Of a stretch of 32,537 bases of DNA, positions 4,081 through 31,174 are shown piece after piece. A program made the translations under genes and the position numbers. The stretch is from the UHGV virus genome UHGV-0139594; one strand, 5' to 3'. Source of the DNA: a virus. How positions within the stretch are numbered: the first letter of the stretch is position 1; every line of letters begins with the position of its first letter. The notes beneath the pieces are model-generated. The model did no database searches. It worked only from the letters and a program-made list of their open reading frames with translations, and was not told where the DNA came from.

Positions 4081-4119
4081 AGCCAAGGAGTGCAAGGATT
4101 ATCAAAAAAAGGAGGTTGT

Positions 4120-5010
4120 ATGGAAGACGCGCTTTACGCTTTTAATTACACACAGAACCGGGACAAGTTATTTGCTAACTTGATTAGCATCATTGATGGA
4201 ATCATTGCAGATGGAGTTGTCCGTGAAGAGGAGGTTCTTTACTTAGATACATGGTTACTTGAAGCAAAGCAGATTATCAATAATGGAGTTATAAAAAGTC
4301 TATCAGCACGGGTGTCGGATATTCTTGCGGATGGAATAATCACATCAGAAGAACGTGATGACCTTAAAAATAGCCTTCTCCAAATACAGAGGGAAATTCT
4401 TGATATCCCTGAAATTGATTTTTACTCCAAGGATGTAGATGTCCATTTACTTAATGGACTATGTAAAGGATTAATTGCTGATCGGAACTTAACTCAAGAA
4501 GAAATAAGATATCTTAATTGGTGGCTTGAGCAAAATGGAGCTTTGAAGAACAACTACCCAGGAAAAAAACTTTATGCACTTGTAAAGGAAATTCTTAAAG
4601 ATGGTGTTATTACTGAAGATGAGAGTTTAACTCTACATAAGGCATTAGTAGACTTCACAGGATGTGACTTGGAAAGTGGGGTGGTGGATGGTTTGGCGAC
4701 CAGGCTGCCTATTGATGTAGGGGCTTCGATAGAGTTAGAGGGTAAAACCTATTGTCTTACAGGCACTTTTGTTGCAGGAAAGAGAGCCGTAGTTGAAAAT
4801 TTGATTAAAAATGCTGGTGGGAACATCAGTAGTGGAATTACTCAAAAGTTGGATTTTTTAGTAATTGGGACGCTTTCCTCCCGTGATTGGAAATTCTCAA
4901 GTCACGGAAGGAAGATCGAAAAGGCTATATCTTATAGGGATGATAATGGTGCAAAACTTAAAATTATTTCTGAAGAAATGCTTTTCGATGCATTACCAAG
5001 TTCGCGATGA
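4120..5010 (+). CDS. Accessory protein with four tandem TerB-like (ADG...EE) helical repeats and a C-terminal BRCT domain
   Basis: GGAGG RBS 4 nt before ATG 4120. Repeats IADGVVREEEVLYLDTWLL, LADGIITSEERDDLKNSLL, IADRNLTQEEIRYLNWWLE, LKDGVITEDESLTLHKALV. C-terminus GKTYCLTGTF...GKRAVVENLIKNAGGNISSGITQKLDFLVIG resembles the LigA-type BRCT domain. Confidence 0.8.
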   Translation: MEDALYAFNYTQNRDKLFANLISIIDGIIADGVVREEEVLYLDTWLLEAKQIINNGVIKSLSARVSDILADGIITSEERDDLKNSLLQIQREILDIPEIDFYSKDVDVHLLNGLCKGLIADRNLTQEEIRYLNWWLEQNGALKNNYPGKKLYALVKEILKDGVITEDESLTLHKALVDFTGCDLESGVVDGLATRLPIDVGASIELEGKTYCLTGTFVAGKRAVVENLIKNAGGNISSGITQKLDFLVIGTLSSRDWKFSSHGRKIEKAISYRDDNGAKLKIISEEMLFDALPSSR

Positions 5011-5679
5011 CCAGAATACCCTACCTATAACATGAATTCTGGCTCGTCTATCTTCAAAGGTGAGTATTTCATCTGGGTACTCATCTTTGTTGAAGCTTCT
5101 AAGAATCAAGCCACCGTCAGGTAAGTTGATAAGTATTTTAACCCTTAGCAATACACCATCTCGTACGGCATAAAGATCGCCATCACGAATAGGAACGGTT
5201 TGAGAAATATCAACGGCAACAAGATCTCCATTATTGAGAACCGGTAATAAACTGTTCCCCCATATTTTTACGATCTTGGCATTAGATGCACATACGCCAG
5301 ATTTTCTCAAATCTGCTCTTCTTAATGGAAACCAGTCAATAGCTGATTCAACTATTTCAGCCAGACATCCGTTACCTGCCGATAACTCGACATCTAAAAC
5401 AGGAATGTTTACGAAAATATCGGGGTCTAATGCGGTGCTTTCTGCTTCTTTTACAACAAGATCAGGTATGGATGCGTTGTCTTCAATACCAAGTTGTAAC
5501 CACTTTTGTGATACACCTAAAACTTTTGCAATTTCTTTAATTTTGCGCGGTTGTAGAGTTTCGCCATTCTCTATTTTGGCTACAGATTGTTGTGAAAGTC
5601 CAATTTTTTCAGCTAGTTGAGCTTGGCTCATGCCAGCTTTCTCTCTACCTATCTTTAATCGTTCTGCCAGTGTTTTCAC
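4993..5679 (-). CDS. cI: CI-like prophage repressor (XRE-type HTH + S24 LexA-like peptidase domain)
   Basis: N-terminal HTH (MSQAQLAEKIGLSQQSVAKIENGE) and C-terminal S24 autopeptidase-like region. Divergent from the cro-like gene across an operator-rich intergenic region. Confidence 0.88.
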   Translation of the reverse strand: MKTLAERLKIGREKAGMSQAQLAEKIGLSQQSVAKIENGETLQPRKIKEIAKVLGVSQKWLQLGIEDNASIPDLVVKEAESTALDPDIFVNIPVLDVELSAGNGCLAEIVESAIDWFPLRRADLRKSGVCASNAKIVKIWGNSLLPVLNNGDLVAVDISQTVPIRDGDLYAVRDGVLLRVKILINLPDGGLILRSFNKDEYPDEILTFEDRRARIHVIGRVFWSSRTW

Positions 5680-5689
5680 AACATATCCC

Positions 5690-5805
5690 TCTCTTTTTTG
5701 ATGAGGTTACAACTTTATGTTTTAGCTTTCCAACACCTAAAAGTTGTGATAAAAGTTGTTAATGTTGTATTCTTGCAACTCGTAACAACTTAACTACCTA
5801 AAAAG
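5690..5805. promoter_or_regulatory. OR-like operator/promoter region between cI and cro
   Basis: Repeated half-site-like motifs ACAACTTTATGT, CACCTAAAAGTTGT, AAGTTGT, ATGTTGT, CAACTCGTAACAACTT. Confidence 0.5.
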
Positions 5806-5814
5806 GAGAAAGCT

Positions 5815-6063
5815 ATGACACCTGAGCAATTAGCCTTATCGGAGGCAATCGCTCTGGCTGGTGGTCAATCAGAATTGGCTCGGAAGCTCACAGCCAGCAG
5901 CGGTCATTTAGTAAAGCAACAACATGTCTGGAACTGGTTGAACAGAGAAAAGCGTCCCCCTGCAAAGCTCTCGATATTCATTGAAAAGACCACTGGCATA
6001 TCAAAAGAAAAATTACGTCCAGATATTTTTCAAAAGATTAAAGATTCATCAGATGAAAAGTAA
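5815..6063 (+). CDS. cro: Cro-like (YdaS-like) HTH regulator
   Basis: 82-aa ORF with AAGGAG RBS, divergent from the repressor; HTH-like segment and typical position. Confidence 0.75.
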   Translation: MTPEQLALSEAIALAGGQSELARKLTASSGHLVKQQHVWNWLNREKRPPAKLSIFIEKTTGISKEKLRPDIFQKIKDSSDEK

Positions 6064-6085
6064 CCACAGTTTTAAGGAGATAGCC

Positions 6086-6637
6086 GTGGGTAAGCATCAC
6101 TGGAAAGTAGAAAAACAGCCTAAGTGGTACGTGAAAGCTGTCAGAAAAACTATCGCGGCGTTGCCGGGTGGTTACGCTGAAGCTGCTGACTGGCTGGATG
6201 TAACAGAGAACGCATTATTTAACCGCCTTCGTGCCGATGGCGATCAGATTTTCCCGCTGGGATGGGCAATGGTTTTACAGCGCGCAGCTGGCACTCACTA
6301 CATTGCGGATGCTGTCGCACAGTCTGCTGGTGGGGTGTTCGTATCGCTTCCTGAAATTGAGGAAGTAGAGAACGCCGATATAAACCAGCGCCTGCTGGAA
6401 GTCATCGAACAGATCGGGAGTTACTCAAAGCAGATTCGTTCGGCAATCGAAGATGGGGTAGTGGAGCCACACGAGCAGACAGCAATTAACGACGAGCTGT
6501 ATCTCTCAATTTCGAAGCTGCAGGAGCATGCAGCACTGGTCTACAAAATCTTTTGCATTTCAGAAAGTAATGACGCCCGCGAGTGTGCAGCTCCGGGCGC
6601 CGTGGCGTGTCGTGACTGTGGAGAAACTAACGCATGA
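6086..6637 (+). CDS. CII-like regulatory protein (phage 186 CII / CP76 family-like)
   Basis: Directly after cro. GTG at 6086 has an AAGGAG RBS; ATG at 6053 is an alternative start. Family call is weak recollection only. Confidence 0.55.
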
Positions 6638-7923: not shown

Positions 7924-8414
7924 TCATGAGTCTTTTGAATGACGTTCAGAAATTCATTGAAGCCCATCCGGGGTGTACTTCCGGAGACATTGCGGATGCT
8001 TTTGCAGGTTACTCACGGCAGCGCGTTCTGCAGTCAGCAAGCAAGTTACGTCAGAGTGGGCGTGTGGCTCACCGTTGTGAAGGGGATACACGCAGACATT
8101 TCCCGCGCCAGACAAAGATATCGCAGGAGGCGGAACCGCAACCAGTTCGTGAAACCAGACCTGTGCGCAATTTCTATGTCGGCACTAACGATCCCCGGGT
8201 GATTTTGTGCCTGACCCGCCAGGCGGAAGAACTGGAGTCGAGGGGCTTATACCGTCGTGCTGCAACCGTGTGGATGGCGGCATTCCGTGAAAGCCACTCC
8301 CAGCCAGAGCGAAACAATTTTCTTGCGCGTCGTGAGCGGTGTTTACGGAAAAGCAGCAAGCGCGCTGTACCGGGTGATGAGTGGTATCTGTCAGGGAATT
8401 ACGTGGGGGCTTAA
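7920..8414 (+). CDS. Hypothetical protein with PerC-like C-terminal region
   Basis: ATGA start/stop overlap with the rep gene. AEELESRGLYRRAATVWMAAF resembles the PerC-family signature (recollection only). Confidence 0.45.
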   Translation: MIMSLLNDVQKFIEAHPGCTSGDIADAFAGYSRQRVLQSASKLRQSGRVAHRCEGDTRRHFPRQTKISQEAEPQPVRETRPVRNFYVGTNDPRVILCLTRQAEELESRGLYRRAATVWMAAFRESHSQPERNNFLARRERCLRKSSKRAVPGDEWYLSGNYVGA

Positions 8415-9067
8415 TGAGTAATAAATATTGCCAGGCGCTGGTCGAACTGCGGAACAAACCAGCCCATGAACTGAAGGAAGTGGGCGATCAGTGGCGCACG
8501 CCGGATAACATTTTCTGGGGAATTAACACCCTGTTTGGCCCGTTTGTTCTGGATCTGTTCACTGACGGTGATAACGCCAAATGTGCCGCGTATTACACGG
8601 CGGAAGACAACGCGCTGGCGCATGACTGGTCAGAACGTCTTGCGGAGCTTAAAGGTGCTGCCTTTGGTAATCCCCCATACAGCCGCGCCAGTCAGCATGA
8701 GGGGCAATACATCACCGGCATGCGTTACATCATGAAGCATGCCAGTGCCATGCGTGATAAAGGCGGGCGCTATGTTTTCCTGATCAAAGCTGCCACCAGC
8801 GAAGTGTGGTGGCCGGAAGATGCAGATCATATTGCTTTTATTCGCGGGCGTATTGGTTTTGAACTGCCTGTCTGGTTTATCCCGAAAGACGAGAAGCAGG
8901 TACCGACAGGCGCTTTCTTCGCTGGTGCTATTGCTGTTTTCGACAAGACCTGGAAGGGACCGGCAATCAGCTACATCGGGCGCGATGAACTTGAGGCATG
9001 TGGTGAGGCCTTTCTGGCGCAGGTTCGCCAGCAGGCGGAAAAACTGGTCAGGGAGATGGCGGCATGA
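8414..9067 (+). CDS. Phage Dam-type N6-adenine DNA methyltransferase
   Basis: NPPY motif (GNPPYS); start ATG overlaps the upstream stop (TAATG). Confidence 0.75.
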   Translation: MSNKYCQALVELRNKPAHELKEVGDQWRTPDNIFWGINTLFGPFVLDLFTDGDNAKCAAYYTAEDNALAHDWSERLAELKGAAFGNPPYSRASQHEGQYITGMRYIMKHASAMRDKGGRYVFLIKAATSEVWWPEDADHIAFIRGRIGFELPVWFIPKDEKQVPTGAFFAGAIAVFDKTWKGPAISYIGRDELEACGEAFLAQVRQQAEKLVREMAA

Positions 9068-11616: not shown

Positions 11617-12195
11617 ATGATTAATCCTTCTGAAATTGGCAAAACGGGTGAAATGGTTCGTCTTCGTACTCTGGAAAGTATCTGGGTTCAGGGTAAGCTC
11701 CGCATGTGGGGACGCTGGTCTTATATCGGCGGTGGTAGTGGTGGGAACATGTTTAACCAGCTACTGGCATCTGGAAAAATTACCAAAACGGCAATTAAAG
11801 AAGCGCTACGCCGGATGAAAAAAGCGGGTATCAGCAAACCAGAGCTGGAAGCGTTTTTCAAAGAGATTCAGGAAGGGCAGAATAAAAGCGGTCTGGCGTT
11901 CTGTACCGATGAGGAAGCGCTGACCATCAACGCTGTACTCAGCGATGTCCTTGTGCAGTCAGGACATAAGAATTTATACGCTCTTATTGAAGATCGTTAT
12001 ATCAAACGCCTTAGCAAAAAGGCAATGGCAAGAGACCTAAATAAAAAGCATCCTGAATGGTGTTTGCGAACCTGTGAAAGCCGGATTGATGTTTGGCTAA
12101 ATGTAGCAGAATCGATGCTATACAAGCCAATGTGTGATGCATTTGGCACAAATGGCGACAGATTCCGCTTGAATAGTTGCGCGGAAAGTGCTTGA
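11617..12195 (+). CDS. Putative late-gene antiterminator (Q-like) by position
   Basis: Last gene before a strong intrinsic terminator and the lysis cassette; no confident family assignment. Confidence 0.45.
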   Translation: MINPSEIGKTGEMVRLRTLESIWVQGKLRMWGRWSYIGGGSGGNMFNQLLASGKITKTAIKEALRRMKKAGISKPELEAFFKEIQEGQNKSGLAFCTDEEALTINAVLSDVLVQSGHKNLYALIEDRYIKRLSKKAMARDLNKKHPEWCLRTCESRIDVWLNVAESMLYKPMCDAFGTNGDRFRLNSCAESA

Positions 12196-12276: not shown

Positions 12277-12756
12277 CTAGAGCAGACCTATAGCGCCACC
12301 GGCAATAGCAGTAAGTAAAGGATGTTCTGCTAACTTTCTTAGCAGCCCCTTTGCTTCTTCTTTCTGCTGTGGCGTACCCTGAGAGCTATTTATTAAGTTA
12401 TTCAGCGTCTCGATGCTATTGGTAATCTCCTGACGGTTATGATCTCCAATCTGTACATTCCCTCCGTGAATGTTGATTTGCTGAGAAGAAATAGTTGGTT
12501 GTATCTTTTTGGGGCCAACCTTGAGTTGGAAGTGTGGGCCAAAACCGCCAATGCTAGTGTCGTAAAAATTAGCTTTATAAATTTCTTTATGTTCTTCCTT
12601 ACCGTTTGGAAGGAGTCGAACAACAGTATCCCCGTCATCGATGTCGGCCATTTGGTCGTTTACGATAATTGTATCACCTGCAAACTTGGCCTTATACGGG
12701 CCGCATCTGCTGCCATCACGTTTTAAGATGTAGGCATCGTCTTTAGCTGTAAACAT
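12277..12756 (-). CDS. Moron: hypothetical 159-aa protein between Q-like gene and holin
   Basis: Opposite-strand ORF in the Q-S intergenic hotspot, ending at the bidirectional terminator. C-terminal hydrophobic tail LLTAIAGGAIGLL. Confidence 0.6.
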   Translation of the reverse strand: MFTAKDDAYILKRDGSRCGPYKAKFAGDTIIVNDQMADIDDGDTVVRLLPNGKEEHKEIYKANFYDTSIGGFGPHFQLKVGPKKIQPTISSQQINIHGGNVQIGDHNRQEITNSIETLNNLINSSQGTPQQKEEAKGLLRKLAEHPLLTAIAGGAIGLL

Positions 12757-13830: not shown

Positions 13831-14206
13831 GCTGGTTATCGCTGCATTCTTCTTTACTGTCATCGGTTCTTTCATCTGGTCTGCCAACCACTACTACAGC
13901 AAATATCAGCACGAAAAGAAACGTGCTGATGAGGCTGTACAAAATGTTGAATCTGCAACAGCCATTACCCGTAACGTCCTGCAATCACTGCAAATCGTCA
14001 ATACAGTTATAGAGGTTAACCAGCATGCAAAACAGCAGATCGCACTGGAGTCACAGAGAACCCAGGAAGATATCAAAGTGGCTGTTGCGGATGATGATTG
14101 TGCTTCACGTCCTGTGCCTGCTGCCGCTGCTGACCGGTTGCGGAAATTCGCGAACGGTTTACGTGAGCGCTCCGGTGGCACCACTGCCAGCCAGCCTGAC
14201 TTCTGA
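13814..14206 (+). CDS. Rz: Rz-like i-spanin
   Basis: N-terminal transmembrane helix (LVIAAFFFTVIGSFIW), coiled-coil body, position after endolysin. Confidence 0.7.
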   Translation: MKLSYKLVIAAFFFTVIGSFIWSANHYYSKYQHEKKRADEAVQNVESATAITRNVLQSLQIVNTVIEVNQHAKQQIALESQRTQEDIKVAVADDDCASRPVPAAAADRLRKFANGLRERSGGTTASQPDF

Positions 14207-14348
14207 TACTCCTGTACCGTTTATACCCAATCCGCTGACGTATGGTGCCAGCCTGGAGCTGAATGTGAGTCTGTTGTCTGCACTGGCTAACTGCAATCGG
14301 GATAAAGCTGATATTCGTAAAATAGATGCAGAGAGAACTAACCATTAA
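14091..14348 (+). CDS. Rz1: Rz1-like o-spanin lipoprotein, overlapping Rz in +1 frame
   Basis: Signal peptide with lipobox MMIVLHVLCLLPLLTGC; Pro-rich mature part; begins inside Rz and extends past its stop. Confidence 0.65.
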   Translation: MMIVLHVLCLLPLLTGCGNSRTVYVSAPVAPLPASLTSDTPVPFIPNPLTYGASLELNVSLLSALANCNRDKADIRKIDAERTNH

Positions 14349-14369
14349 GCAATAAAATTGTCAAATTGA

Positions 14370-14996
14370 TCAGTTGTCAAATGAATATACGTTAAAGGTA
14401 TATGTCGACATAATTTCACCAAGTACCTCAATACATATACTTTTTTTATGAAAATTACTGGGAAATGAACTTAGCTCTTCAAGGTATTGCACATAAGTGC
14501 TGATATCACTTGCATCACGTTCAAGGAATTTCACTTGGCCAAAAGAAGGAGTATTAATCCTGGTTCTTTGCTGGATTATATGGATAAAATGTGTAGTTGG
14601 TGAAACTATTACTCTTGAAATATCGGAAATGATGTCTTCTTGAACTTGCCGATAAAGTAAATCCTTTGGGTAATGGTGTTTTATCTCGATGGTTGCAACA
14701 TTGCCATTATGTTCAGACGTTAATATCGACTGGTTATAAAGTGATATGTCAACAGCGCCGATACCGAGTTTTGGATGCTCACTTAAAGCAGTTAGTGTGC
14801 TGATTTGATTGAGTATAACAACTAACTCATCACGTATTTGTGTTTCATGTTTGCGATTGTAGAAGTAGCCATTCAGTTCATTTAACTTTTTATGCATCCT
14901 ATCGTGACTAATTGCTTCGATCAGTAAATCCTGAATCATACTTTTCTCTAGGTAATCCGAACGGTTGTAAGTGACAGTATTGTGCTGGCATGTCAT
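14370..14996 (-). CDS. Moron cassette gene B: hypothetical 208-aa protein with a possible PD-(D/E)xK-like motif
   Basis: AT-rich ORF on the opposite strand in the bor position. Segment GIGAVDISLY ... VATIEIKHH loosely fits D...(D/E)xK spacing; speculative. Confidence 0.55.
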   Translation of the reverse strand: MTCQHNTVTYNRSDYLEKSMIQDLLIEAISHDRMHKKLNELNGYFYNRKHETQIRDELVVILNQISTLTALSEHPKLGIGAVDISLYNQSILTSEHNGNVATIEIKHHYPKDLLYRQVQEDIISDISRVIVSPTTHFIHIIQQRTRINTPSFGQVKFLERDASDISTYVQYLEELSSFPSNFHKKSICIEVLGEIMSTYTFNVYSFDN

Positions 14997-15039
14997 TAAT
15001 ATGTAAAGGTATTGTGAATGCCAGAAAGATAACGAAGTA

Positions 15040-15375
15040 TCATCGATAGAAAAACTTTACAGCCCACTCGTAAACAGCTTTGTAAATCGGTTCATGGTAA
15101 ATACTATCGATACTATTCAGATGTGCGATCATCGCCTCCACAGTTGTAGTGGTTGTTTCTAATATTTCGATTATTGCAGGGCGGTCATCATCTTCATCGA
15201 AGTATTCGAACAGCAGTACAGGTTTACCATGCCATTCAGCATCAGAGACTCTAAGGTTACAACTACCGCTCAACTCAAAGTGAATTTTGTAATTACCTTC
15301 TACAGAATGGCCTACGGGGAAAAAGTATAGGGTGTCATCTTTGTTCAAAAGCCATTCCCATTCATAACTATTCAT
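15040..15375 (-). CDS. Moron cassette gene A: hypothetical acidic 111-aa protein
   Basis: AT-rich ORF upstream of gene B on the same strand, 43-bp gap. AGGAG RBS before the second ATG (MNSYEWEWLL). Confidence 0.55.
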   Translation of the reverse strand: MNSYEWEWLLNKDDTLYFFPVGHSVEGNYKIHFELSGSCNLRVSDAEWHGKPVLLFEYFDEDDDRPAIIEILETTTTTVEAMIAHLNSIDSIYHEPIYKAVYEWAVKFFYR

Positions 15376-15525
15376 TTGTGAACTCCTGTTCATTGAGTTT
15401 CAACAACTATCAACTACATCCAGCGAAGCATAAAAGATCGTTTATGGCAAAACCGGAATGGAGTGCGATTCGATTCTGAGAAGGATGCCACGTATCGTAC
15501 GCGAACCATCCAAGAGGATTATGCA

Positions 15526-15876
15526 ATGCCCCTACGAACCCCAAAAGCCTGCCGTGTTCGCGGCTGCCGCCATACCACTACTGACCCGTCAGGCTACTGC
15601 GAAAGCCACAAAAGCGAAGGCTGGAAGCAATACAAACCTGGACAATCCCGTCATCAGCGCGGCTACGGTTCGAAGTGGGACAGTATCCGCGCGCGTGTTC
15701 TGAAGCGTGACAAAGGTCTGTGTCAGTTATGTCTGCGTGCTGGTGTGGTGCGTGAGGCGAAAACTGTTGACCACATCATCCCTAAAGCGCATGGCGGCAC
15801 TGATGCTGACAGTAATCTGCAGAGTCTGTGCTGGCCGTGTCATAAGGCGAAGACGGCCCGTGAACGGTTAAAGTGA
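15526..15876 (+). CDS. HNH endonuclease (terminase-associated)
   Basis: CxxC ... DHIIPKAHGGTDADSNLQSLCWPCH HNH motif; directly upstream of the small terminase as in HK97-like cos phages. Confidence 0.8.
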   Translation: MPLRTPKACRVRGCRHTTTDPSGYCESHKSEGWKQYKPGQSRHQRGYGSKWDSIRARVLKRDKGLCQLCLRAGVVREAKTVDHIIPKAHGGTDADSNLQSLCWPCHKAKTARERLK

Positions 15877-15962: not shown

Positions 15963-16001
15963 ATACCCGCGAAAAATGAAATTTAACCAGGAGTGCCGCA
16001 T

Positions 16002-16496
16002 ATGGCTGGAACGGCGGGGCGTTCCGGGCGTCGCCCCAAGCCAACGGCGCGCAAGGCGCTGGCCGGAAACCCCGGCAAGCGAGCCCTGAACAAAGATGAA
16101 CCTGTTTTTACGCCCATCAAAGGTGTTGAGCCACCGGAGTGGTTCGCAGAAGAAAATCTCCCTCTCGCCACGATCATGTGGCAACTGACAACCAAAGAAC
16201 TCTGCGGTCAGGGCCTGCTGTGCGTGACTGACCTCGCGGTGCTTGAGCGGTGGTGCGTAGCCTATGAGTTCTGGCGACGTGCCGTGAAAAATATTGCCAG
16301 CCAGGGCAACACCATCACCGGTGCAATGGGCGGTATGGTCAAAAATCCGGAGCTGACCGCCAAGAAAGAACAGGAGTCCGAGATGAGCAGCACGGGGGCA
16401 ATGCTCGGACTCGACCCCAGCAGCCGCCAGCGTCTGATTGGCCTGGCGGGGCAGAAGAAAGCCACTAACCCGTTTCTGAAAATTATCGAATCATGA
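16002..16496 (+). CDS. Terminase small subunit (P27-family-like)
   Basis: AGGAG RBS before ATG 16002; basic N-terminus [14 protein letters not shown] typical of P27-type TerS; precedes the large terminase. Confidence 0.75.
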
Positions 16497-17344
16497 GCCG
16501 GAAATCTTACCCCAACGTAAATGCAGCCAATCAGTATGCCCGTCATGTCGTGCGCGGAAAGATTGTGGCCTGCCAGTTTGTGATTCAGGCCTGCCAGCGC
16601 CATCTTGATGACCTGATGGCGGAAAAAAGTAAGTCGTTTCGTTACCGCTTCGACAAGGACCTGGCTGAACGGGCCGCGAAATTTATTCAGCTGTTGCCGC
16701 ACACCAAGGGTGAGTGGGCATTCAAACGGATGCCCATCACGCTGGAGCCGTGGCAGCTATTTGTGATCTGCTGTGCGTTTGGCTGGGTCAATAAAGGCAC
16801 CCGGTTGCGCCGCTTCCGGGAGGTGTATACCGAAATCCCCCGTAAGAACGGCAAATCAGCAATCTCTGCCGGTGTTGCCCTGTATTGTTTTGCCTGTGAT
16901 AACGAGTTTGGCGCGGAAGTGTATTCCGGTGCCACGACAGAGAAACAGGCGTGGGAAGTCTTTCGCCCGGCGCGACTGATGTGTAAACGCACACCCATGC
17001 TGACGGAAGCGTTCGGGATTGAGGTTAACGCCTCAAACATGAACCGTCCGGAGGATGGCGCGCGGTTTGAACCGCTGATCGGTAACCCCGGTGATGGTTC
17101 ATCACCCCACTGTGCGGTGGTGGATGAATATCACGAGCACGCCACCGATGCGCTTTATACCACGATGCTTACCGGGATGGGGGCGCGACGTCAGCCACTG
17201 ATGTGGGCCATCACCACCGCCGGGTACAACATTGAGGGGCCGTGCTACGACAAGCGGCGGGAAGTTATCGAGATGCTCAACGGTTCGGTAACCCTGCGCA
17301 CATTATCGGTTATGGATCGGTGTTTGACTGTCGTTCTGAGCTGA
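16493..17344 (+). pseudogene. Terminase large subunit, truncated after the ATPase domain
   Basis: Walker B-like AVVDEYHEH and ITTAG motif present, but ORF is only 283 aa. Its last ~36 codons are an out-of-frame read of the prohead protease gene. No nuclease domain and no portal gene follow. Confidence 0.65.
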
Positions 17345-17832
17345 TATTTGGTTCATTCCGCGAAATCATCCGGCCCGGCGCTTTTGACGATGTGCTTGGT
17401 GATGATGTACGCGCACTGTTTAACCACGATCCTAATTTTATTCTTGGGCGTAGTGCAGCAGGCACGCTGAATCTTTCAGTTGATGAGCGCGGATTGCGCT
17501 ATGACATCCAGGCTCCGGAGACACAGACCATTCGTGATCTGGTGCTGGCCCCGATGCAACGTGGAGATATTAACCAGTCATCTTTTGCTTTCCGTGTCGC
17601 CCGTGACGGCGAGGAGTGGTATCAGGATGAGGACGGGGTTGTTATTCGCGAGATAACCCGCTTTTCCCGTCTGCTGGATGTCAGTCCTGTGACATATCCT
17701 GCCTATCAGGAGGCTGACTCGGCTGTTCGCTCCATGAAAGCATGGCAGGAGGCGCGCAACAGCGGCGCGCTACAGAAAGCCATTAATCAACGTATGGCGC
17801 GTGAGCGCGTCCTGACCCTTCTTAACGCGTAA
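17242..17832 (+). CDS. Prohead protease, HK97 family
   Basis: [10 protein letters not shown]...[12 protein letters not shown]...ALFNHD...[21 protein letters not shown] matches HK97 gp4-type protease motifs. Frame opens only at 17236, so start (GTG 17242) is uncertain. Confidence 0.75.
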
Positions 17833-21113: not shown

Positions 21114-22344
21114 CACCATTCCGTCGAATACGCTGGTTCCGCTGTTTTATGCGGAAATGGATAACTCGGCGGCGAATACTGCACAGGACAGCGGGGCATC
21201 GTTGCTGATTGGTCACGCCAATAACGGTGCAGAGATTGTTGCCAACAGTCTGGTGCTGATGCCGTCGGCAGACTATGCACGCCAGATTTGTGGTGCGGGA
21301 AGTCAGCTGGCGCGTATGGTCGAGGCTTATCGCCAGACCGATCCGTTTGGCGAGCTGTATGTGATTGCCGTTCCGGAAGCCACAGGCGCGGCGGCAACGG
21401 TTACGCTGACGGTGACCGGAGCAGCAACCGAAACCGGCACGGTGAATGTTTATGTGGGACGTACCCGCGTGCAGGCACCGGTGACCAACGGCGATAACGT
21501 CACGACGATTGCCAGCAGTATCCAGGATGCCATCAATGCCGTTCCGGCCCTGCCGTTTACGGCCTCATCTTCGGCAGGCGTGGTCACGCTGACCGCGCGT
21601 CATAAGGGGCTTTGCGGGAATGAAATTCCTGTCAGCCTCAATTACTACGGCTTTGGTGGGGGCGAAGTGCTGCCAGCGGGCGTACAGATTGCCGTGGCGA
21701 CGGGGAGCGCCGGAACGGGCGCTCCGGTTCTCACCGGTGCGGTGGCTGCAATGGCGGATGAGCCGTTTGATTATATTGGCTTGCCGTTCAACGACACGGC
21801 CTCCGTTAACACGCTGGTGACCGAGATGAACGATACCAGCGGTCGCTGGAGCTATGCGCGTCAGCTGTATGGTCATGTGTATACGGCAAAGATCGGCACG
21901 CTGTCAGAACTGGTGACCGCAGGTGACCAGTTTAACCAGCAGCACATTACCCTGGCGGGATACGAAAAAGACACTCAGACGCCAGCCGACGAGCTGGCGG
22001 CAAGCCGTACCGCCCGCGCAGCGGTGTTTATTCGCAACGATCCGGCACGTCCCACGCAGACCGGTGAGCTGGTGGGTATGCTGCCTGCACCGAAGGGGAA
22101 ACGGTTCACGATGACCGAGCAACAGACCCTGCTGTCTCATGGCGTGGCAACGGCGTATGTCGAAAGTGGGGTAAACGCTCTACGTGGCATACACAACGAT
22201 TTACAAGAGCTAAACGAAAGGCTTTACCGTGGTTTTAGCCTGACCGTCGAGGAAGTCGAGATCACCTTGTCCGGCATATTCAGATTCAACTTTCAGGCCC
22301 AGCAGCGCGGTAATCAGATCCACTTCAACACGGTTTGCGTGTGA
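21097..22344 (+). CDS. Contractile tail sheath protein (Mu gpL-like), probably 3'-truncated
   Basis: MTISFNTIPSNTLVPLFYAEMDNS ... GSQLARM ... VTLTARHKGLCGNEIPVSLNYYG match Mu-like sheath signatures. Protein is 415 aa against an expected ~490, and the sheath-like sequence seems to stop near 22150. Confidence 0.7.
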   Translation: MTISFNTIPSNTLVPLFYAEMDNSAANTAQDSGASLLIGHANNGAEIVANSLVLMPSADYARQICGAGSQLARMVEAYRQTDPFGELYVIAVPEATGAAATVTLTVTGAATETGTVNVYVGRTRVQAPVTNGDNVTTIASSIQDAINAVPALPFTASSSAGVVTLTARHKGLCGNEIPVSLNYYGFGGGEVLPAGVQIAVATGSAGTGAPVLTGAVAAMADEPFDYIGLPFNDTASVNTLVTEMNDTSGRWSYARQLYGHVYTAKIGTLSELVTAGDQFNQQHITLAGYEKDTQTPADELAASRTARAAVFIRNDPARPTQTGELVGMLPAPKGKRFTMTEQQTLLSHGVATAYVESGVNALRGIHNDLQELNERLYRGFSLTVEEVEITLSGIFRFNFQAQQRGNQIHFNTVCV

Positions 22345-22716
22345 ACGGTAATGAGCCTCAGAGAAATCATTAACCGCTACCAGCATAGCATCAGAACGGT
22401 TTGGATATTGGCGGCTGTATTGTTCCAGGTCACGAGAAGTAACAGCGTTAATACTGCCGACGTGTTTCATCTGGAAAAGTTTGTTTGACCATTCCTGACG
22501 TTTAGAGGCGTTCCAGTCGCTTTGAGCGTAAGGCGAGGTTTCCCCAGCTACCTGCACAAACTGATCAATCAGGTCGGTAAGAAGAATGCTGTTTTCTGTA
22601 TGATATTGCACATCGAACAGATCGAGATTAGTAATCAGGGTATTAAGTGCATTCTCATAAGCAAAAGGAGTTACTACCGCAGTATTAACGCCAAAATATG
22701 TTGATAAATCATTCAT
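22210..22716 (-). CDS. Hypothetical protein (168 aa), last gene of a minus-strand operon
   Basis: ORF in a 3-gene minus-strand cluster; its 3' end overlaps the sheath ORF tail. No confident homology. Confidence 0.45.
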   Translation of the reverse strand: MNDLSTYFGVNTAVVTPFAYENALNTLITNLDLFDVQYHTENSILLTDLIDQFVQVAGETSPYAQSDWNASKRQEWSNKLFQMKHVGSINAVTSRDLEQYSRQYPNRSDAMLVAVNDFSEAHYRSHANRVEVDLITALLGLKVESEYAGQGDLDFLDGQAKTTVKPFV

Positions 22717-22730
22717 TATTATTTTCCTTG

Positions 22731-23114
22731 TTAAGTCGTAGGGATCGCAAGTTCTTCATAACTAGCAATTACAAAGCCGAGAGATTGCAGTTTTGCAATA
22801 ACACTTGCCTTTTCCATGCTGTTAAATTCAATCCCATCTTCAGCCAGAATAACGAAAGTAGGATGTGCAACCACTACGCTTTCCTGTCCTTCATAAGCCG
22901 GTTCAACTACTACGTGAGCAATATCAGATGCGGTTGTTGCTTTGGTGCCATCGGCTTTCAGCAAAGCCCCGACAATAAGATCGTCAGTGAGAGGTGAAGC
23001 CAGTTTGACGAGGCGATCTTGCAGCACCGGATCAGCAGCGTAAGCTACTACCTTACAGCGTGAACGGGAGTTATCCGCATTCACTACTTTTAATTTTCCA
23101 TATGGGTTAGCCAT
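22731..23114 (-). CDS. Hypothetical protein (127 aa)
   Basis: ORF in the same operon. Weak resemblance to head-decoration-type proteins (ADGTKATTASDIAHVVVE), not reliable. Confidence 0.45.
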   Translation of the reverse strand: MANPYGKLKVVNADNSRSRCKVVAYAADPVLQDRLVKLASPLTDDLIVGALLKADGTKATTASDIAHVVVEPAYEGQESVVVAHPTFVILAEDGIEFNSMEKASVIAKLQSLGFVIASYEELAIPTT

Positions 23115-23118
23115 AAGA

Positions 23119-23316
23119 TTATTTTCCTTTCAGTTGTTTAATTTTAGATTTAAGGGCATCAGCAAGACTAACCGCATCAGCCGATTTAAATAATTGAGCA
23201 GTGGTAGAACGAAGACTTTCGGGAGTAACTCCCAACAGTGCGGCAACCTTAATGAGGTTTTCATCACTAACAATCATCGTTTCCCCGTCTTTGCTGATAA
23301 TCATTTCTTGTTTCAT
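23119..23316 (-). CDS. Hypothetical small protein (65 aa)
   Basis: Start taken at the internal ATG (MKQEMIISKDG) with an AGGAA-type RBS; first gene of the cluster. Confidence 0.4.
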   Translation of the reverse strand: MKQEMIISKDGETMIVSDENLIKVAALLGVTPESLRSTTAQLFKSADAVSLADALKSKIKQLKGK

Positions 23317-24300
23317 AAATAACGTTCCTGTTAGTGCCAGACAAATAAAAAGCCCCAATGCCGTAAGAGGTTAATTCTGACCAGCAAAGGGGCTTTAACG
23401 TGCGGGCAATTACATAATTGATAAGTTAAACTATAAGAGGATTAAACATATCAGCAAATACACTTTTTAAATATACTTGATGATATGCTTAAAGGGTGAA
23501 TAGATACTCCTGAAAACATGCTCTTAGGAAAACATGCGGAATCAATCAGGAATATCTATTCGGGGCGCGGTGGCCAACCGCTATCTTTCATGGTGTGGAT
23601 GCACCAGTCAGATTTTAAGGAATCACTATTCCAATCTACTCACAGATTAAATTTTTAATAATGATTAACTACACCAACAGTAATCTACCGTTTCAGAAAA
23701 TCGTTTTTACAACCAAAGCTTATAGATCCGCATTCTATAAAACCCGTTTTGCTATCAATATTTCCAAAGTTTATTGCACCATTCTTAGCTAAACTCTCTC
23801 TGCTTGCGGCTAACGCTATGCAGATGATTGTTTTTGACAACAACTTAATAGATTGTTCTGTTACTAACTTCTGTCATTAAATAATAGTTTAATGATGTTA
23901 GTAAATAGTTATAAAATATAACTATCAGTGTAAGGCTCTTTAATATTTTCTGACAAAATAAGGAGCTTTAGGATAAGCATAGATGAAAAATAAGAGCGGG
24001 AAGGGCAAGGAGATAACACCTACCCGCTTTTATCAAAATTAAGCACAATGCCTAACAACATTCATCAACACAACGTAGAAACAATCAACAATCAAAGAGG
24101 GAGTTATGATTATTCTAAAACTTCTTGAGAGATGGAAGGTAATATTTGTTAGAGGTTAATGCCACTCAACCTTTGAGGCTATCACCTTCCATATGCAGGG
24201 ATTTATGACAGTAGAAGGATTAACACCAGTCAAAACCTTTTTATCTACCCCTAATATCATTATATAATGAAATCGTTATAAATGCAAATGATTTTCATTA

Positions 24301-24609
24301 TCATTTAGAGAAAATAGCACTTTTTGCTAAATCGTCTACTAATTGCTGAATCTCTTCACTTGCAGCCTTTAACGTGCTGGCGGTGTCTGTGATGGTTTGA
24401 GTGCACATCTTGGCATCGTCCTCAATTAGCTCTAAATCGCTCACCAGAGAGATAAAATCGTCAAGGCTTACATTCACCTTCATTAAGCTAATAACGCATT
24501 GAGAGAGCGTGTAATCGCATAAATCTGAATAGGCTTGATTTATTCTTGTTTGTAGTGAGATAGTCAGATCTAAAAGTTGTTCCATTGCATTGCTAATATC
24601 TTCTTCCAT
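24301..24609 (-). CDS. Hypothetical acidic protein (102 aa)
   Basis: AAGGAG RBS; start overlaps upstream stop (TAATG); AT-rich. Confidence 0.5.
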   Translation of the reverse strand: MEEDISNAMEQLLDLTISLQTRINQAYSDLCDYTLSQCVISLMKVNVSLDDFISLVSDLELIEDDAKMCTQTITDTASTLKAASEEIQQLVDDLAKSAIFSK

Positions 24610-24854
24610 TATGCGGCTTCTCCTTGTAATGCATCATTAATCATATTCAATACGATGTTAAAAGGTGTCTTGAGCGTCAGCACTTCATCACGATAACGCT
24701 CTAATGCTTCGTAGTCTTCTGTTTCTTTTGCCAGTCGGATTAACTCAGCATAGTTTTTTGCATCAGACAGGATCATCTGAAATAATTGTGTTTCTTGAAT
24801 ATAGCCAATCATTATTTTTCCTTTTTCGAATATTTTCATTGGGCGCTTATACAT
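24609..24854 (-). CDS. Hypothetical protein (81 aa or shorter)
   Basis: Coupled to downstream gene; alternative start at internal Met with AAAGGA RBS. Confidence 0.45.
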   Translation of the reverse strand: MYKRPMKIFEKGKIMIGYIQETQLFQMILSDAKNYAELIRLAKETEDYEALERYRDEVLTLKTPFNIVLNMINDALQGEAA

Positions 24855-24869
24855 ACACCCATCATTTTA

Positions 24870-25253
24870 TTAGTTAGAACGTTTGTTAGAAGCTAATGTA
24901 TCTTCTAAATGAGCCATCAGATCGACTTCCGATGCACCACCTACACAATTATTGAAAGCGTTAAATCCCAAAAAATGATGATAGGAGCTAAACCCTAAAA
25001 GTTGCCAACGCTTCAGAGTGCCATCAGAAATTATTGTTTGTTTTCTTGTTCTTGGGCGAAAGTAAACGCCTGGCATTGACTGGATTATTTCTAATTCTTT
25101 ATTACTTAATTCAGGGGATTCTATTTCAAGAATAAATATTATCTCTTCCCCTGGAATTTCATTATTGGTATGTGTCGGTGGACGTTGTCTTTTTGAATTG
25201 AAATTACTGTTTTTTTCAATACGTTTTAAGTTATTCTTTTTCTTTCTTCCCAT
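24870..25253 (-). CDS. Hypothetical protein with basic N-terminus (127 aa)
   Basis: AAGAGGG RBS; N-terminal Lys/Arg-rich segment MGRKKKNNLKRIEKN. Confidence 0.5.
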   Translation of the reverse strand: MGRKKKNNLKRIEKNSNFNSKRQRPPTHTNNEIPGEEIIFILEIESPELSNKELEIIQSMPGVYFRPRTRKQTIISDGTLKRWQLLGFSSYHHFLGFNAFNNCVGGASEVDLMAHLEDTLASNKRSN

Positions 25254-25627
25254 TTTCCCTCTTTTTATGTGGATTATAAAAACTTAATGCCATTGTTACG
25301 ATGAATATCGCCATAAATGCATTTGCCATATGTATTGCCCGATCTGTTGTTATTGATTGTTTGTGAGAAACAATTCAAAATCTTTGTTTAATTTCAAAAG
25401 ACGAAATGTAGTGCTGTTAATCCCTTCATAATCCAGCACACCGAACGATGTAAAATGATTTAACCAACAATTTCTGATAGTGCGCTGTAGCCGCCTAAAC
25501 TACAAAAGCTAACCACTGTCGGTGGTGAAAACTCTATTTCCAAAATAGCTTTTAAAATGTTGTATCCGCTTTCAGTTATTTCAATAGTTTTGTTTCCTAT
25601 AGTGATGTTATAAGTCATTTATTCTCC

Positions 25628-26221
25628 TTAGAAGGGTAGTGAATCATATATTGTGCTCTCACTTTTGAGATCAATTATCAAAGAGTCAAAATCATTTTCA
25701 CAAAGATAGATATTCTTTGAATCTAATGCTCGTTTTACAAAATCTTCTGTTTCTTCGTGCGGTGGTTTCTTCTTATCAAGGGAAAGAAGCCAAGTAAAAA
25801 TTTCGGGCCGCTCAGGGAACTCTGGCTCTTGTGTTTCTTCTTCAACGATGATTTCGGAAACATTCAATATTTCATTAGATTCGTCTTCTTTCTCAGAAGG
25901 ATCAGGTAGTGATGATTCTCCTTTTGGAATATCAAGCACTCGATAAAGGTTAGAGCTTCCTGGTCGTGCATCTTTTATAATTAATCCCATTTCGAGCAAT
26001 TTCTTAACCCTTTCTTCTGCTGCTCTTGGTGTTATGCCAAAAACATCGCCTATCTTAGCGTAAGAGGGAAATGCACGATCAAACCCTCTCAGATAGCAGT
26101 AAAGGTTTTTAGCACTATCTGTAAATTTATGCCCGTTTACTTGGCTTATTTTTAGAATCCACATAGGAACTTTTACAAATTGTTCTTCATTAATCATTAA
26201 AAATCTCCTTGATGTAATCAC
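25628..26221 (-). CDS. Rep-like winged-helix protein (putative replication initiator of an iteron replicon)
   Basis: N-terminal wHTH (NLYCYLRGF...SYAKIGDVFGITPRAAEERVKKLLEMGLI) resembling replication-initiator DNA-binding domains; acidic C-terminal half; iteron array about 1.2 kb upstream. Confidence 0.55.
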   Translation of the reverse strand: MITSRRFLMINEEQFVKVPMWILKISQVNGHKFTDSAKNLYCYLRGFDRAFPSYAKIGDVFGITPRAAEERVKKLLEMGLIIKDARPGSSNLYRVLDIPKGESSLPDPSEKEDESNEILNVSEIIVEEETQEPEFPERPEIFTWLLSLDKKKPPHEETEDFVKRALDSKNIYLCENDFDSLIIDLKSESTIYDSLPF

Positions 26222-26250
26222 GCTCTACGGCGCTACTATGGTGATAAAAA

Positions 26251-26421
26251 TCACTTGCTTTTGTTTGAGAGTGTTTCAGCCTCTCTTTTCAACATATCAA
26301 GAATGTAATCTGTAACAGTGATACGTTTACTTCTGGCTTCTTTAAACAACACCTGAAATACTTCATCAGGAATATGAAAGCAAGTGCGTGGTTGTCTTTT
26401 CTTTTCTGTAGTTTCGCTCAT
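26251..26421 (-). CDS. Small ribbon-helix-helix-like protein (56 aa)
   Basis: MSETTEKKRQPRTCFHIPDEVFQVLFKEARSKRITVTDYILDMLKREAETLSNKSK; GGAGAAGGAGAA RBS; below track cutoff. Confidence 0.5.
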   Translation of the reverse strand: MSETTEKKRQPRTCFHIPDEVFQVLFKEARSKRITVTDYILDMLKREAETLSNKSK

Positions 26422-26442
26422 AGTTTTCTCCTTCTCCTGTTA

Positions 26443-26625
26443 TTATTCTTTCTCTGCTTCTGCCTTACGCAGTTCATCAATAATTTTTAGTGCATCGTCA
26501 AAGCATTTTTCACGCTCTGGATAACCTCTACTCCTTGCCATATTACGATTCATTACTATTTGATGTCGTGTTAGCTCACCTTTTTTAAATGCCTCTGCGA
26601 CGTGTTTCGGTGTAAACCATTTCAT
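26443..26625 (-). CDS. Hypothetical small basic protein (60 aa)
   Basis: ORF immediately upstream of the RHH gene on the same strand. Confidence 0.45.
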   Translation of the reverse strand: MKWFTPKHVAEAFKKGELTRHQIVMNRNMARSRGYPEREKCFDDALKIIDELRKAEAEKE

Positions 26626-27454
26626 AAAAACTCCTTATTCAGTTAAAAGAAAAAAAACACCTTGCAAGCCTGACGGCTTCAAAGTGCATTGATTTTGATT
26701 ATTTAGAGAAGAATGTTTTTCTGTCCCTCTAATACCTATTATTACATATAAAGAAACATTTGTCAATACCCTTTTCGCAAAAATACGATCTTTTTCAGCA
26801 GCTTAAAATTTTTCTTAGCAATTCGTGCTCTTATGAGTACTCCTATTCTTCCTTATTCTCTAAAACGCTCTCTGACGAGGTTTTGATAAATACAATACAT
26901 TCCCTTATGTAGAGGCTGTTTAGCTCGCCAGAGGCTTATTTAAGCGGTAGAAACTTATTTAACCTTCAACTACTAAAACCATTCTTTCTTTTTTGTTTGT
27001 TGTTGGTTGTTGTCTGTGTCTATGTGCTAACATCGCTAATGCGTAGCACACAAGGTTATTGCACTCGTCAGAGTATTGCACAATAGATTTTCTCTTAAAT
27101 AGATTGATGATCGTTAGATTGGCGTAAGCCTCATCAATGGAACTATTGAAGCGCACAGCGCATAGACACTAACAACCATTCGCTTACGCTCAGGTTATTG
27201 CACATAGTAGATTACATATTCGTTGTGAGCGGCATTAGCGAACATAGATCTACTAACTAACATCAACAAACAAAAACTATGTGTTATGACAAGCAGTCTA
27301 ACGACTAACACTCTAACTTGTGCAAGGTTCTGGCGAATGCCAATAGATTAAGGGATAGTCGTTAGACTCCCCTAACGGGTATCCCTATAATTATTCTTTA
27401 AAGATAAAGGAATTTATAAAAGATAATTTAATTGTAGTTTGATAGTTGATCTAA

Positions 27455-27600
27455 TAGGTAACAAAATTCTGTAGGGGTGGCTAACAGTTTTCTGTGGGGG
27501 TGTCTAACATAATTCTGTTAGGGTTGGGGTAACAGTTTTCTGTTAGGGTGCATATTTCTTTAAAAGTTAAGGATAACAGAATTCTGTGGGGGTAGCTCAC
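27455..27600. repeat. Iteron array: five copies of a ~23-bp unit (AACAnnnTTCTGTnGGGGTnG)
   Basis: AACAAAATTCTGTAGGGGTGG, AACAGTTTTCTGTGGGGGTG, AACATAATTCTGTTAGGGTTGG, AACAGTTTTCTGTTAGGGTG, AACAGAATTCTGTGGGGGTAG at roughly 23-bp phasing. Confidence 0.7.
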
Positions 27601-28709
27601 AGTGACCTACCGTTACATCCATTTATCACATAACATCTGTGCAATGATCTTCTAAAAGTGTTTCTTGCTACCAAAATTAAACATCTAAAACAGGCTTAAA
27701 TTCAATGTAATTGATGATTAATCCCTGTGTAATTCCTACGTAAAAATTCAATGAAAAGTAGCTTAAAAGTGCAATTCTTACTTTCTTCACTTTTACATCA
27801 CTTTCGCAAAGCCTTGTGTAATGCGGCTACAGCGCACTATCAGAAATTGTTGATTAAAAATCAATCTATTATTTGTCGAACAAGTTTCTTTCACGTGTTG
27901 AAAATTTATGTTTAAATTTGCTTTCAATCTTTAATGTGCAATCACTATCAACATAAAAATAAAAAACCTTCTATTATATTTCATAGCATACAAAAGTCAA
28001 TAGAAGCCCTCTCGTGCTCCTACGTAAAAAATCCACCACTTTTCCCCTGATACATCAACTCAAGGCGTTCCATGTGTTCCTTAGTGCATATTACGATTAT
28101 TATGTTAAATGGATTTTGGCCCATATTTTGACCTGCACCCGCATAAACACTGGTTTCATCGCTTACAGCCCTTGTGAGACGTGGTGCTGTTTCTAGCATC
28201 TGATCCGACATAAAACCGATCATTCTCGTGTTTAGTGAAAGTTTAGTGAGAGACATTACAGAAAGGCTTTCTGTGTAATGATTTAATAGGTAAAAACGAT
28301 GTTGATTACGCAAGAAAATTCCTTGCTGATATTTGGGGATTCTGGATTTTCCAGATCGGGGGGCGGTGAAAATCGCGTTAAGCACTTCTCGCAATCTAGC
28401 CATAAGGGAAGGGATAAAGGTATTTAGATGTATTTATAGCTATTTATGGCTATTTATTTTTTATTTACCTTAATTTAAAAATAGCCTTATAAATCAATAA
28501 GATACAGGACTATCTGTTTATATTTTAATCAATTAAATCAAGTTTAATACCCTTAAACCACCTGAAAATAACCTTAAATACCCCAATAATTAATTTTAAC
28601 GATTCCTGTGCTCTCTCCTACTTTGCAAAAAGGCAAAAAAAGCCCATAGAGGCACAAAAATATTAAAACCAATAACTCAATAATGCCTCTACAAGAGCTT
28701 CTCTAACTG

Positions 28710-29261
28710 TTATTTTTGATTGAGCTTACATCGATCCCATTGTTCTGTCGTTCTTGTGATACGATCGCTTATTGCAAAATTTAATAGCCAAGAATCATAA
28801 GCATAAACCTTGCTTTTATCATCTGCCATCATAAACTTGCCGTTAGCATTCAGTTTTGGCGATATCAAATATGTTCCATTTAATCTGTTAGCCTTGAAGC
28901 TATCTGCATATAAAGTTACTTGTGCGTATCCCTGAACACGTAATGCCCCTAAACGTCCGTTTTCGATTGATGCAATAGAGTATTGGCAAAGATAATTTTT
29001 GGCAGCAGGAGTCGTTTTCACTCCTTCAGTTTTTCGTGAATTATTTGATTGCGAGCTTCGAATAGAGGATGAAGGATAAGAGTATGAATGATTTTTATAA
29101 GATGAAGGGGCATAAGAGCCAATCCGGCACGTCTTACCAACAGCTATACACGAGTTACCACAAGGTATTCCTTTTTTGCAGTTTTTAGCAACTGCGGTAG
29201 AAGTTCCCCCTACAAACAACGTTGTAAAAATCATCATCCTCACAAATGCAGACCTGCGCAT
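28710..29261 (-). CDS. Secreted Cys-rich protein of unknown function (183 aa)
   Basis: N-terminal signal peptide (MMIFTTLFVGGTSTAVA), Cys cluster CKKGIPCGNSCIAVGKTC, Ser-rich linker, ~100-aa C-terminal domain; AT-rich. Confidence 0.55.
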   Translation of the reverse strand: MRRSAFVRMMIFTTLFVGGTSTAVAKNCKKGIPCGNSCIAVGKTCRIGSYAPSSYKNHSYSYPSSSIRSSQSNNSRKTEGVKTTPAAKNYLCQYSIASIENGRLGALRVQGYAQVTLYADSFKANRLNGTYLISPKLNANGKFMMADDKSKVYAYDSWLLNFAISDRITRTTEQWDRCKLNQK

Positions 29262-29655
29262 ATAACCTCCCTTTTTAGATTATTCTTATGCTATACACTT
29301 GCTTAAAAAAATAAAAGTGCCCTCTAACCTTTATCGTTCTCCATCACAATTTGAGAAGTAAGAGCAGCAACCTCAAGCGATGATCACGTTTGCGCCGATT
29401 TCAGAGAAAAAGACAGTAACTGAACTCACTATGAAGGCTAAACGTATCTTTACACTTGATGAAAACGTTCAAAAAACAACCTAACCCCAAAATTCAACAA
29501 ATAACAACATATTGTTTTTAAAAGAAAATTAAATCTACATCAAATATTGGTTGACGTAGATTGAGGTGAATAGTAGACTATTAGGGTAAATTGCCATTCT
29601 TGCAACATCATTTAATGCATGTTCTAATCCTCCTATCCCAAAACCGGAGGAAGTT

Positions 29656-29814: not shown

Positions 29815-29880
29815 TAATTTCACTATCAGGCGCATAAACACATCTTTGATCGCTGGATGTGTTATGCGCCTACTGGTGAT

Positions 29881-31168: not shown

Positions 31169-31174
31169 CAATGA

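Follow-up and report, generated by a model that had tools for sequence, protein, structure and literature searches.

Between the lysis genes and the packaging genes of an Escherichia coli prophage, two adjacent genes are transcribed against the late operon, and this locus raises two questions: whether the two genes form one system, as the first-pass annotation had suggested by calling them a two-component defence, abortive-infection or toxin-antitoxin module, and what the larger of the two does for the phage or for its host. The larger gene is called here gene A and the smaller one, located upstream of it, gene B; the whole stretch of DNA that has been analysed, 32,537 nucleotides in length, is called the window. 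The window represents an e14/SfI-SfII-like prophage whose integration site is tRNA-Thr (thrW), beside proA in E. coli; its closest complete genome is NZ_CP128596 (locus L001), with 99.6% identity across the cassette of A and B.

The two genes correspond to two minus-strand ORFs of the same orientation, 14370-14996 (208 aa) and 15040-15393 (117 aa). In all homologues, in the PHROG profiles and in PGAP, gene A starts at M20 (MIQDLL...) and gene B at M7, so that the 208-aa ORF is over-extended and A is a protein of 189 aa; the earlier description of two co-oriented ORFs stands, as does its length of 111 aa for B, but its length for A is 19 codons too long. The stop codons of A and of lysC, the last gene of the lysis cassette, are 21 nt apart, and a ribosome-binding site, AGGAG, is located 7 nt upstream of the start of B. 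The coordinates of these features and of their flanks are collected in Table 1.

Table 1. Cassette of genes A and B and its flanks, in window coordinates.
Feature	Position	Strand	Description
lysC (Rz1-like), left flank	14025..14348	+	final lysis-cassette gene, convergent with A
Variable cargo segment relative to same-flank prophages	14318..15525	.	blastn against L018, L019-L023
Gene A	14370..14939	-	189 aa, cytoplasmic, predicted single-domain PD-(D/E)xK, WP_053897784-like, phrog_12494
Catalytic-motif codons of A	14679..14750	-	D64 14750-14748, E85 14687-14685, K87 14681-14679
Spacer between B and A, 100 nt	14940..15039	-	promoter-like TTTACA-17-CACAAT at 15007-14979, not significant
Gene B	15040..15375	-	111 aa, acidic, phrog_14397
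B start to HNH start, 150 nt	15376..15525	.	part of variable segment
HNH endonuclease gene, right flank	15526..15876	+	precedes terminase small subunit
P27-family terminase small subunit (terS)	15993..16496	+	

In lambda, the lysogen-expressed moron bor is located between Rz/Rz1 and the packaging genes, and the first-pass annotation had placed the cassette in this bor position, describing it as a classical accessory slot whose content was consistent with horizontal acquisition. The survey of homologous prophages that it had proposed has revealed six other states of the slot in E. coli prophages that carry the same lysis and HNH/terS flanks: the slot is empty, with a gap of 26 bp between lysC and the HNH gene (L018), or it holds iss, a Bor homologue, on the minus strand (L019), a DUF2441 protein (L020), two small hypothetical genes (L021), a 74-aa gene together with a 146-aa gene (L022) or a GrlR-family gene (L023). 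The right joint, as aligned by blastn, is the start codon of the HNH gene, homology beginning at window position 15525 or 15526 in all six comparators; the left joint relative to the empty site lies inside the 3' end of lysC, where homology ends at 14317. The segment between these joints is therefore cargo that can be exchanged, and the slot is a true moron slot of the bor/iss kind. All three parts of the earlier placement are borne out: iss occurs on the minus strand at exactly that position, the content of the slot varies, and the segment is polymorphic with exact boundaries relative to the empty site.

Part of the 1.4-kb query is matched in 522 of the 5426 complete E. coli genomes, and the full cassette is present in 73 of the 5426. 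In each of the approximately 12 different prophage backbones examined, A converges on the end of the lysis cassette and lies on the strand opposite to the late genes; A and B, each occurring alone, keep the same slot and the same anti-late strand across many unrelated lysis/terminase backgrounds.

The cassette is also distinguished by its base composition, as had been noted from its AT-richness relative to the flanking phage genes: the sliding-window GC content is 0.36-0.39 over 14200-15400, compared with 0.47-0.50 upstream and 0.53-0.60 downstream, and the per-gene values agree (0.351 for A and 0.396 for B, with GC3 of 0.31 and 0.38, respectively, versus 0.48-0.59 for lysozyme, Rz, HNH and terS). 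Among E. coli alleles, the pN/pS of A and B is about 0.1-0.33, and between genera the two proteins remain 65-70% identical despite saturated synonymous sites; the low pN/pS and the preserved protein identity indicate that A and B are real genes under purifying selection.

The expression signals of the cassette are less distinct. A sigma-70 promoter scan has returned a single 9/12 match, upstream of A in the spacer between the two genes, which is no better than in shuffled sequences; two promoter-like sites occur in the cassette, against 4.0 +/- 1.8 in shuffled sequence, the scan has found no consensus promoter in the 150 nt upstream of B, and the combined promoter and terminator scan of the cassette has found nothing convincing, none of the matches being above chance. 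The promoter-like site in the spacer is consistent with a separate transcription of A, without being significant; A occurs without B elsewhere, and thus needs its own expression signals. Of the upstream region that had been attributed to the segment, the gaps of 150 nt between B and HNH and of 100 nt between B and A are present, but the promoter match stays at chance level.

In order to place the two proteins among known families, we have compared them with several collections of models. Neither protein matches Pfam or NCBIfam; their PHROGs matches, phrog_12494 for A and phrog_14397 for B, are both families of unassigned function; neither matches a family of PADLOC-DB v2.0.0 at E <=1, and the suggested check of the locus with PADLOC for a defence match has come out negative, as neither A nor B matches any model. 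Searches of the PDB by sequence, with three profiles of A (A1, A2, A3), have given nothing significant. A word-indexed search has found homologues of A in Enterobacterales only, at 60% identity or above and spread over several genera without a methylase, and an exhaustive HMM search has yielded 42 of 1.84 billion representative proteins at E <=1e-3, the full-length proteins among them being mostly ~180-250 aa long. No record with either gene has been found by tblastn in 50,697 GenBank phage records, and tblastn of plasmids, conducted with A only, has found one fragment. A search of the literature (accessions, PHROG ids and hotspot descriptions of the slot) has found no prior description; SNIPE (PMC13190303) is a membrane nuclease and is unrelated.

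The predicted structure of A has an alpha-beta-beta-beta-alpha-beta core with a mixed central sheet, and the structures closest to it are type II restriction endonucleases: R.SwaI (5tgq) and also BglI, EcoRV, NgoMIV and BamHI. Residue D64 is located just before strand beta2 and the E85-x-K87 motif in strand beta3, their codons being confirmed in the sequence; in an alignment of 33 sequences of the A family, reaching down to 19% identity, the sole invariant columns are K30, E32, D64, E85 and K87. The first reading of the sequence had guessed a restriction-endonuclease fold from the D...(D/E)xK spacing (GAVDISLY...ATIEIKHH), and this guess has proved sound: the motif is present, D64, E85 and K87 are invariant and the predicted fold agrees. 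One member of the family (P0091) matches PDDEXK_4 with 24.1 bits, above the gathering cut-off of 22.3; two members match HSDR_N weakly (E 1.4e-4), and the matches to PDDEXK_9 and DpnII-MboI are only weak. A link between the A family and the PDDEXK_4 proteins that neighbour some of its members has been rejected, hhalign giving a probability of 1.5%.

The assignment of A to the PD-(D/E)xK superfamily, with an intact, conserved predicted metal-binding site formed by E32, D64, E85 and K87, is well supported by the alignment and by the structural model, and the strict conservation of these residues suggests that A is a working enzyme. A is a new family, with no existing domain model, within a known superfamily. 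No modified-base or DNA-reader module (SRA, EVE/YTH, winged helix) and no sensor domain is recognisable in A. Alleles of A truncated to 166, 118 or 38 aa occur, so A can be lost. In Acinetobacter, members of the family (L016 7001-7936; P0094-P0102, P0108) are ~310 aa long and carry a C-terminal DUF6508; from this fusion, DUF6508 might be suspected of having a partner or regulatory role.

The neighbourhoods of distant homologues suggest a connection of A with defence. Seven non-Enterobacterales contexts of A-like genes are readable. In three of these seven (L015, L017, L026), the A-like gene directly adjoins a type I R-M operon or lies within it, and PDDEXK_4, REase-ARP, DUF2441, GmrSD_N and WYL genes also occur; the DUF2441 gene of the L026 island belongs to a family that is itself cargo of the E. 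coli slot (L020). In L024, the A-like gene shares an operon with a C5-methylase and a HATPase_c_3 protein. In the other three of the seven (L016, L027 and the plasmids L029/L030), the A-like gene has neither R-M genes nor a defence island next to it; on the plasmid contigs it adjoins HipA or Rep3, and a HipA toxin-antitoxin pair and a ResIII helicase are encoded on L029.

A homologue of A with 50% identity, in the prophage locus L077, shares the lysis-proximal slot with a Lamassu LmuA/LmuB pair (1-2377; E 1e-148 and 1e-163), being located between the lysis genes and this pair, and an AbiGi-family gene is found nearby, past the lysis cassette (5495-6223). Both neighbours support the junction as a defence hotspot.

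Methylases, on the other hand, do not accompany the gene: none has been found beside A in the window, in L001, in L002-L007 or in the IMG/VR loci inspected. A phage Dam-family N6-adenine methyltransferase (PF05869, E 1e-45) is encoded on the plus strand in the early region of the window (8381-9067), a 646-bp insertion relative to L001 that is unlinked to the cassette. We have rejected this gene as the cognate methylase of A: it is missing from L001, where the cassette is 99.6% identical, and A is thus not one member of a type II R-M pair.

On the whole, we favour the reading that A is a stand-alone, methylase-less nuclease moron, probably a defence gene, and that B is an independent moron; we give this reading as a whole a probability of about 0.5. 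Given the R-M, Lamassu and AbiGi neighbourhoods and the conserved site, defence is the best reading for A, and a plausible one; we infer it by guilt by association, from a handful of loci. A consideration that counts against a stand-alone nuclease is that an unregulated endonuclease should be toxic to the host.

The alternative that we take most seriously, although we consider it unlikely, is that A serves a purpose other than defence, as a lysogenic-conversion or fitness factor, a helper of repair or recombination, a silent DNA-binding regulator, or a nuclease of benefit to the phage, which may target rival prophages or plasmids or degrade host DNA. The occupation of the same slot by iss and GrlR speaks for this alternative; a silent binder is at odds with the invariant catalytic residues of A, a repair helper with the RusA that the prophage already has for junction resolution, and non-defence roles in general fit the repeated R-M, Lamassu and AbiGi neighbourhoods less well than a DNA-targeting immunity gene does.

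We turn now to the pairing of the two genes, i.e. to the proposal that A and B are a toxin-antitoxin, abortive-infection or defence module with A as the nuclease effector and B as an inhibitor, sensor or antitoxin. Within E. coli the proposal appears attractive, as A and B are adjacent and co-oriented in all 73 genomes with the full cassette and in about 25 IMG/VR contigs, and B is small and acidic; in three loci (L083-L085) B is intact next to an A cut to 38 aa, a pattern that is also seen in toxin decay, and an unrelated small gene occurs just upstream of several distant A homologues (75 aa in Enterobacter, 100 aa and IceA2-like in L017 and L026, 106 aa in L015). The divergent homologues speak against it: B is absent from 24 of 24 IMG/VR loci in which A is at most 70% identical, from the A-like loci L015-L030, from the Enterobacter prophages L002-L006, where an unrelated 75-aa gene precedes A, and from the Yersinia prophage L007, where no gene is called upstream of A and the gap has no open frame. 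Conversely, 15 of 15 divergent B loci lack A (8 from IMG/VR at <=73% identity and 7 others, L008-L014), and in L050 and L051 an A that is 96% identical is kept next to a 151-aa gene on the opposite strand, where B would be. The A and B pair is present solely in one E. coli lineage, at 96% identity or above. None of the small proteins encoded upstream of A in L003, L015, L016, L017, L024 and L026 is similar to B, and the only ones related to each other are the IceA2-like proteins of L017 and L026, for which reason a conserved small partner of A has been rejected. In addition, the gap of 100 nt between the two genes is not that of translational coupling, and the lack of a PADLOC match for either protein weighs in the same direction.

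The co-occurrence data have thus largely refuted the two-gene module, which we hold to be improbable: divergent A occurs without B and divergent B without A, which indicates that the two are independent morons that have become neighbours in a single E. coli lineage of near-identical members. That a small acidic ORF and an ORF with a nuclease fold adjoin each other in a single lineage does not count as evidence for a two-component system; the pairing dissolves once divergent homologues are compared.

The IceA2-like proteins deserve a separate mention. They are 100 aa long (L017 6680-6982, L026 5637-5939), consist of three GK(V/T)ELRKESGxxIRTI repeats, match the Helicobacter IceA2 family (E about 1e-5), are 53% identical to each other and are each encoded immediately upstream of the A-like gene in a type I R-M island.

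Gene B, on its part, encodes a protein with a pI of 4.6 and 20 D+E against 8 K+R residues. In Escherichia sp. and metagenomic prophages (L008-L014), B occurs alone beside the terminase small-subunit gene. B is an independent acidic moron and not a required partner of A; as a separate accessory gene, it would probably act by binding another protein.

Similarly improbable is the reading of A as a selfish, free-standing homing endonuclease that cuts A-less phage genomes near the lysis-terminase junction and enters them as a copy during repair, a mechanism that would account for its fidelity to this slot in unrelated phages. PD-(D/E)xK homing endonucleases exist, e.g. I-Ssp6803I, and the AT-richness of A, its presence/absence polymorphism with an intact empty site and its occurrence in the same slot in at least six different terminase/lysis backgrounds would fit. 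The boundaries argue otherwise: iss, DUF2441, GrlR and the small hypothetical genes use the same right joint at the HNH start codon, so that five unrelated cargos and the empty site have a common right joint and none is A-specific; the slot is therefore a general module-exchange point rather than one belonging to A. The flanks are completely different between phage backbones and thus offer no common target site for A, and distant relatives are located on plasmids and in chromosomal R-M islands, not at phage intergenic sites. Finally, phage homing endonuclease genes are typically co-oriented with their neighbours, unlike A, which is transcribed against the late operon.

The weakest alternative sees in A the endonuclease remnant of a type II R-M system in decay, the methylase having been lost or being located elsewhere in the prophage. 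This is very improbable: the best structural matches of A are type II restriction endonucleases, and methylases do occur at a distance (the Dam-family gene of the window and a D12-class gene in the Yersinia prophage L007), but no methylase adjoins A in any prophage locus examined, L001 has the cassette and no Dam-family gene, A is under purifying selection and has spread over Enterobacterales genera without a methylase, and an orphan endonuclease in decay should be either toxic or inactivated.

Returning to the preferred reading, A as a stand-alone defence nuclease, we can outline how such a gene would work. The protein would be an active DNA endonuclease, expressed in the lysogen from the strand opposite to the late operon, and it would restrict incoming phage or other foreign DNA alone, independently of a methyltransferase. 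For the sparing of host DNA, two options appear likeliest: A may depend on a feature that is absent from host DNA, in a type IV-like manner (e.g. modified bases), or housekeeping methylation may protect the host; regulation of the expression of A would be a further possibility. At prophage induction, late antisense transcription through A could shut the gene off.

A broader reading, which we offer tentatively as a possibility, joins these elements: A would represent a new family of minimal (~190 aa), single-domain, methylase-independent nucleases that act against phages alone, that shuttle between the moron slots of Enterobacterales and the type I R-M islands of other phyla, and that follow an unrecognised rule for the distinction of self and non-self, for which housekeeping Dam/Dcm methylation, phage base modifications and antisense shut-off would be the candidates. 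If A is active on its own, a very small single-gene system would be added to the prophage immune repertoire, and it would then have to be explained how a restriction-fold enzyme of 189 aa, with no methylase and no sensor, avoids killing its host. In lambdoid and e14/SfI-like prophages, the bor/iss junction between lysis and terminase genes would, in turn, be a defence hotspot that merits mining, as Lamassu is found in this slot in one relative (L077).

Additional features of the window are located outside the cassette. On the plus strand, 4090-5010 encodes a protein of 306 aa that has a BRCT domain at its C-terminus (E 1.4e-6) and weakly matches PDC-S48, a PADLOC candidate (E 2.7e-7); the gene adjoins a CI-like repressor (4993-5679, minus strand), at the moron position of the immunity region that is taken by rexAB in lambda, and is a possible defence gene. 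A 159-aa ORF on the minus strand (12277-12756), with no family match in Pfam or PADLOC, is located between a Q-like antiterminator (11617-12195) and the holin. Different minus-strand hypothetical genes occupy this position in L001, which makes it a second variable moron slot.

Two discontinuities have been found downstream of the cassette. At 16493-17832, the terminase large-subunit ORF comprises 283 aa; its homology to the intact L001 ends at 17289, and a different HK97 protease/capsid module follows directly, with no portal gene. The junction near 17289 is absent from all complete E. coli genomes, so the prophage is a defective recombinant or the assembly is chimeric. In 22173-32537, the prophage tail homology stops at 22173, within the tail-sheath gene, and the sequence beyond this point matches a different island that elsewhere has its own integrase and tRNA-Thr; this part contains a 47-bp perfect inverted copy of the 3' end of tRNA-Thr (att core, 30639-30685) and an AraC-family regulator (31175-31927).

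The comparison with known systems begins with the slot itself. Bor/Iss, a lipoprotein of the outer membrane, confers serum resistance; A and B share with bor/iss the slot and the minus-strand orientation, the iss of L019 occupying exactly that position, but they have no similarity to Bor/Iss and no predicted transmembrane segment or lipobox, homology being indicated neither by Pfam/NCBIfam matches nor by the predicted fold of A, which is different. With the small acidic B encoded upstream of A, which has a predicted nuclease fold, the E. coli cassette also resembles in its layout the two-gene nuclease/inhibitor modules, such as toxin-antitoxin systems or a nuclease effector with its immunity protein.

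With the type II restriction endonucleases, A shares the predicted core fold, the acidic residue of the first helix, the D before beta2 and the ExK in beta3, and its size of 189 aa is within the range of the small type II enzymes; a cognate methyltransferase, which characterises type II R-M systems, is not located next to A. Nucleases embedded in other systems are a further point of comparison, as in the embedded type IV system of Vibrio VPI-2, an accessory nuclease in an R-M/defence island (PMC11411939). Distant members of the A family occupy such positions in L015, L017 and L026, like embedded nucleases of the PDDEXK_4 and REase-ARP/PDDEXK_13 types, and P0091 passes the PDDEXK_4 threshold; the A of the window differs in that it matches no Pfam model and is located in a prophage, not in an R-M operon.

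The type IV enzymes, finally, are solitary endonucleases without a methylase, as A would be. Prophage-encoded restriction of this methylase-less type is represented by McrA of prophage e14 and by GmrSD of CT596; McrA is an HNH enzyme and GmrSD has DUF262/DUF1524, both with separate recognition modules. A differs from both in being a single predicted PD-(D/E)xK domain with no recognisable modified-base reader, and resembles them as a putative solitary nuclease moron, with no methylase, in an e14-related backbone (ymfK, ymfL, ymfT, ymfR).
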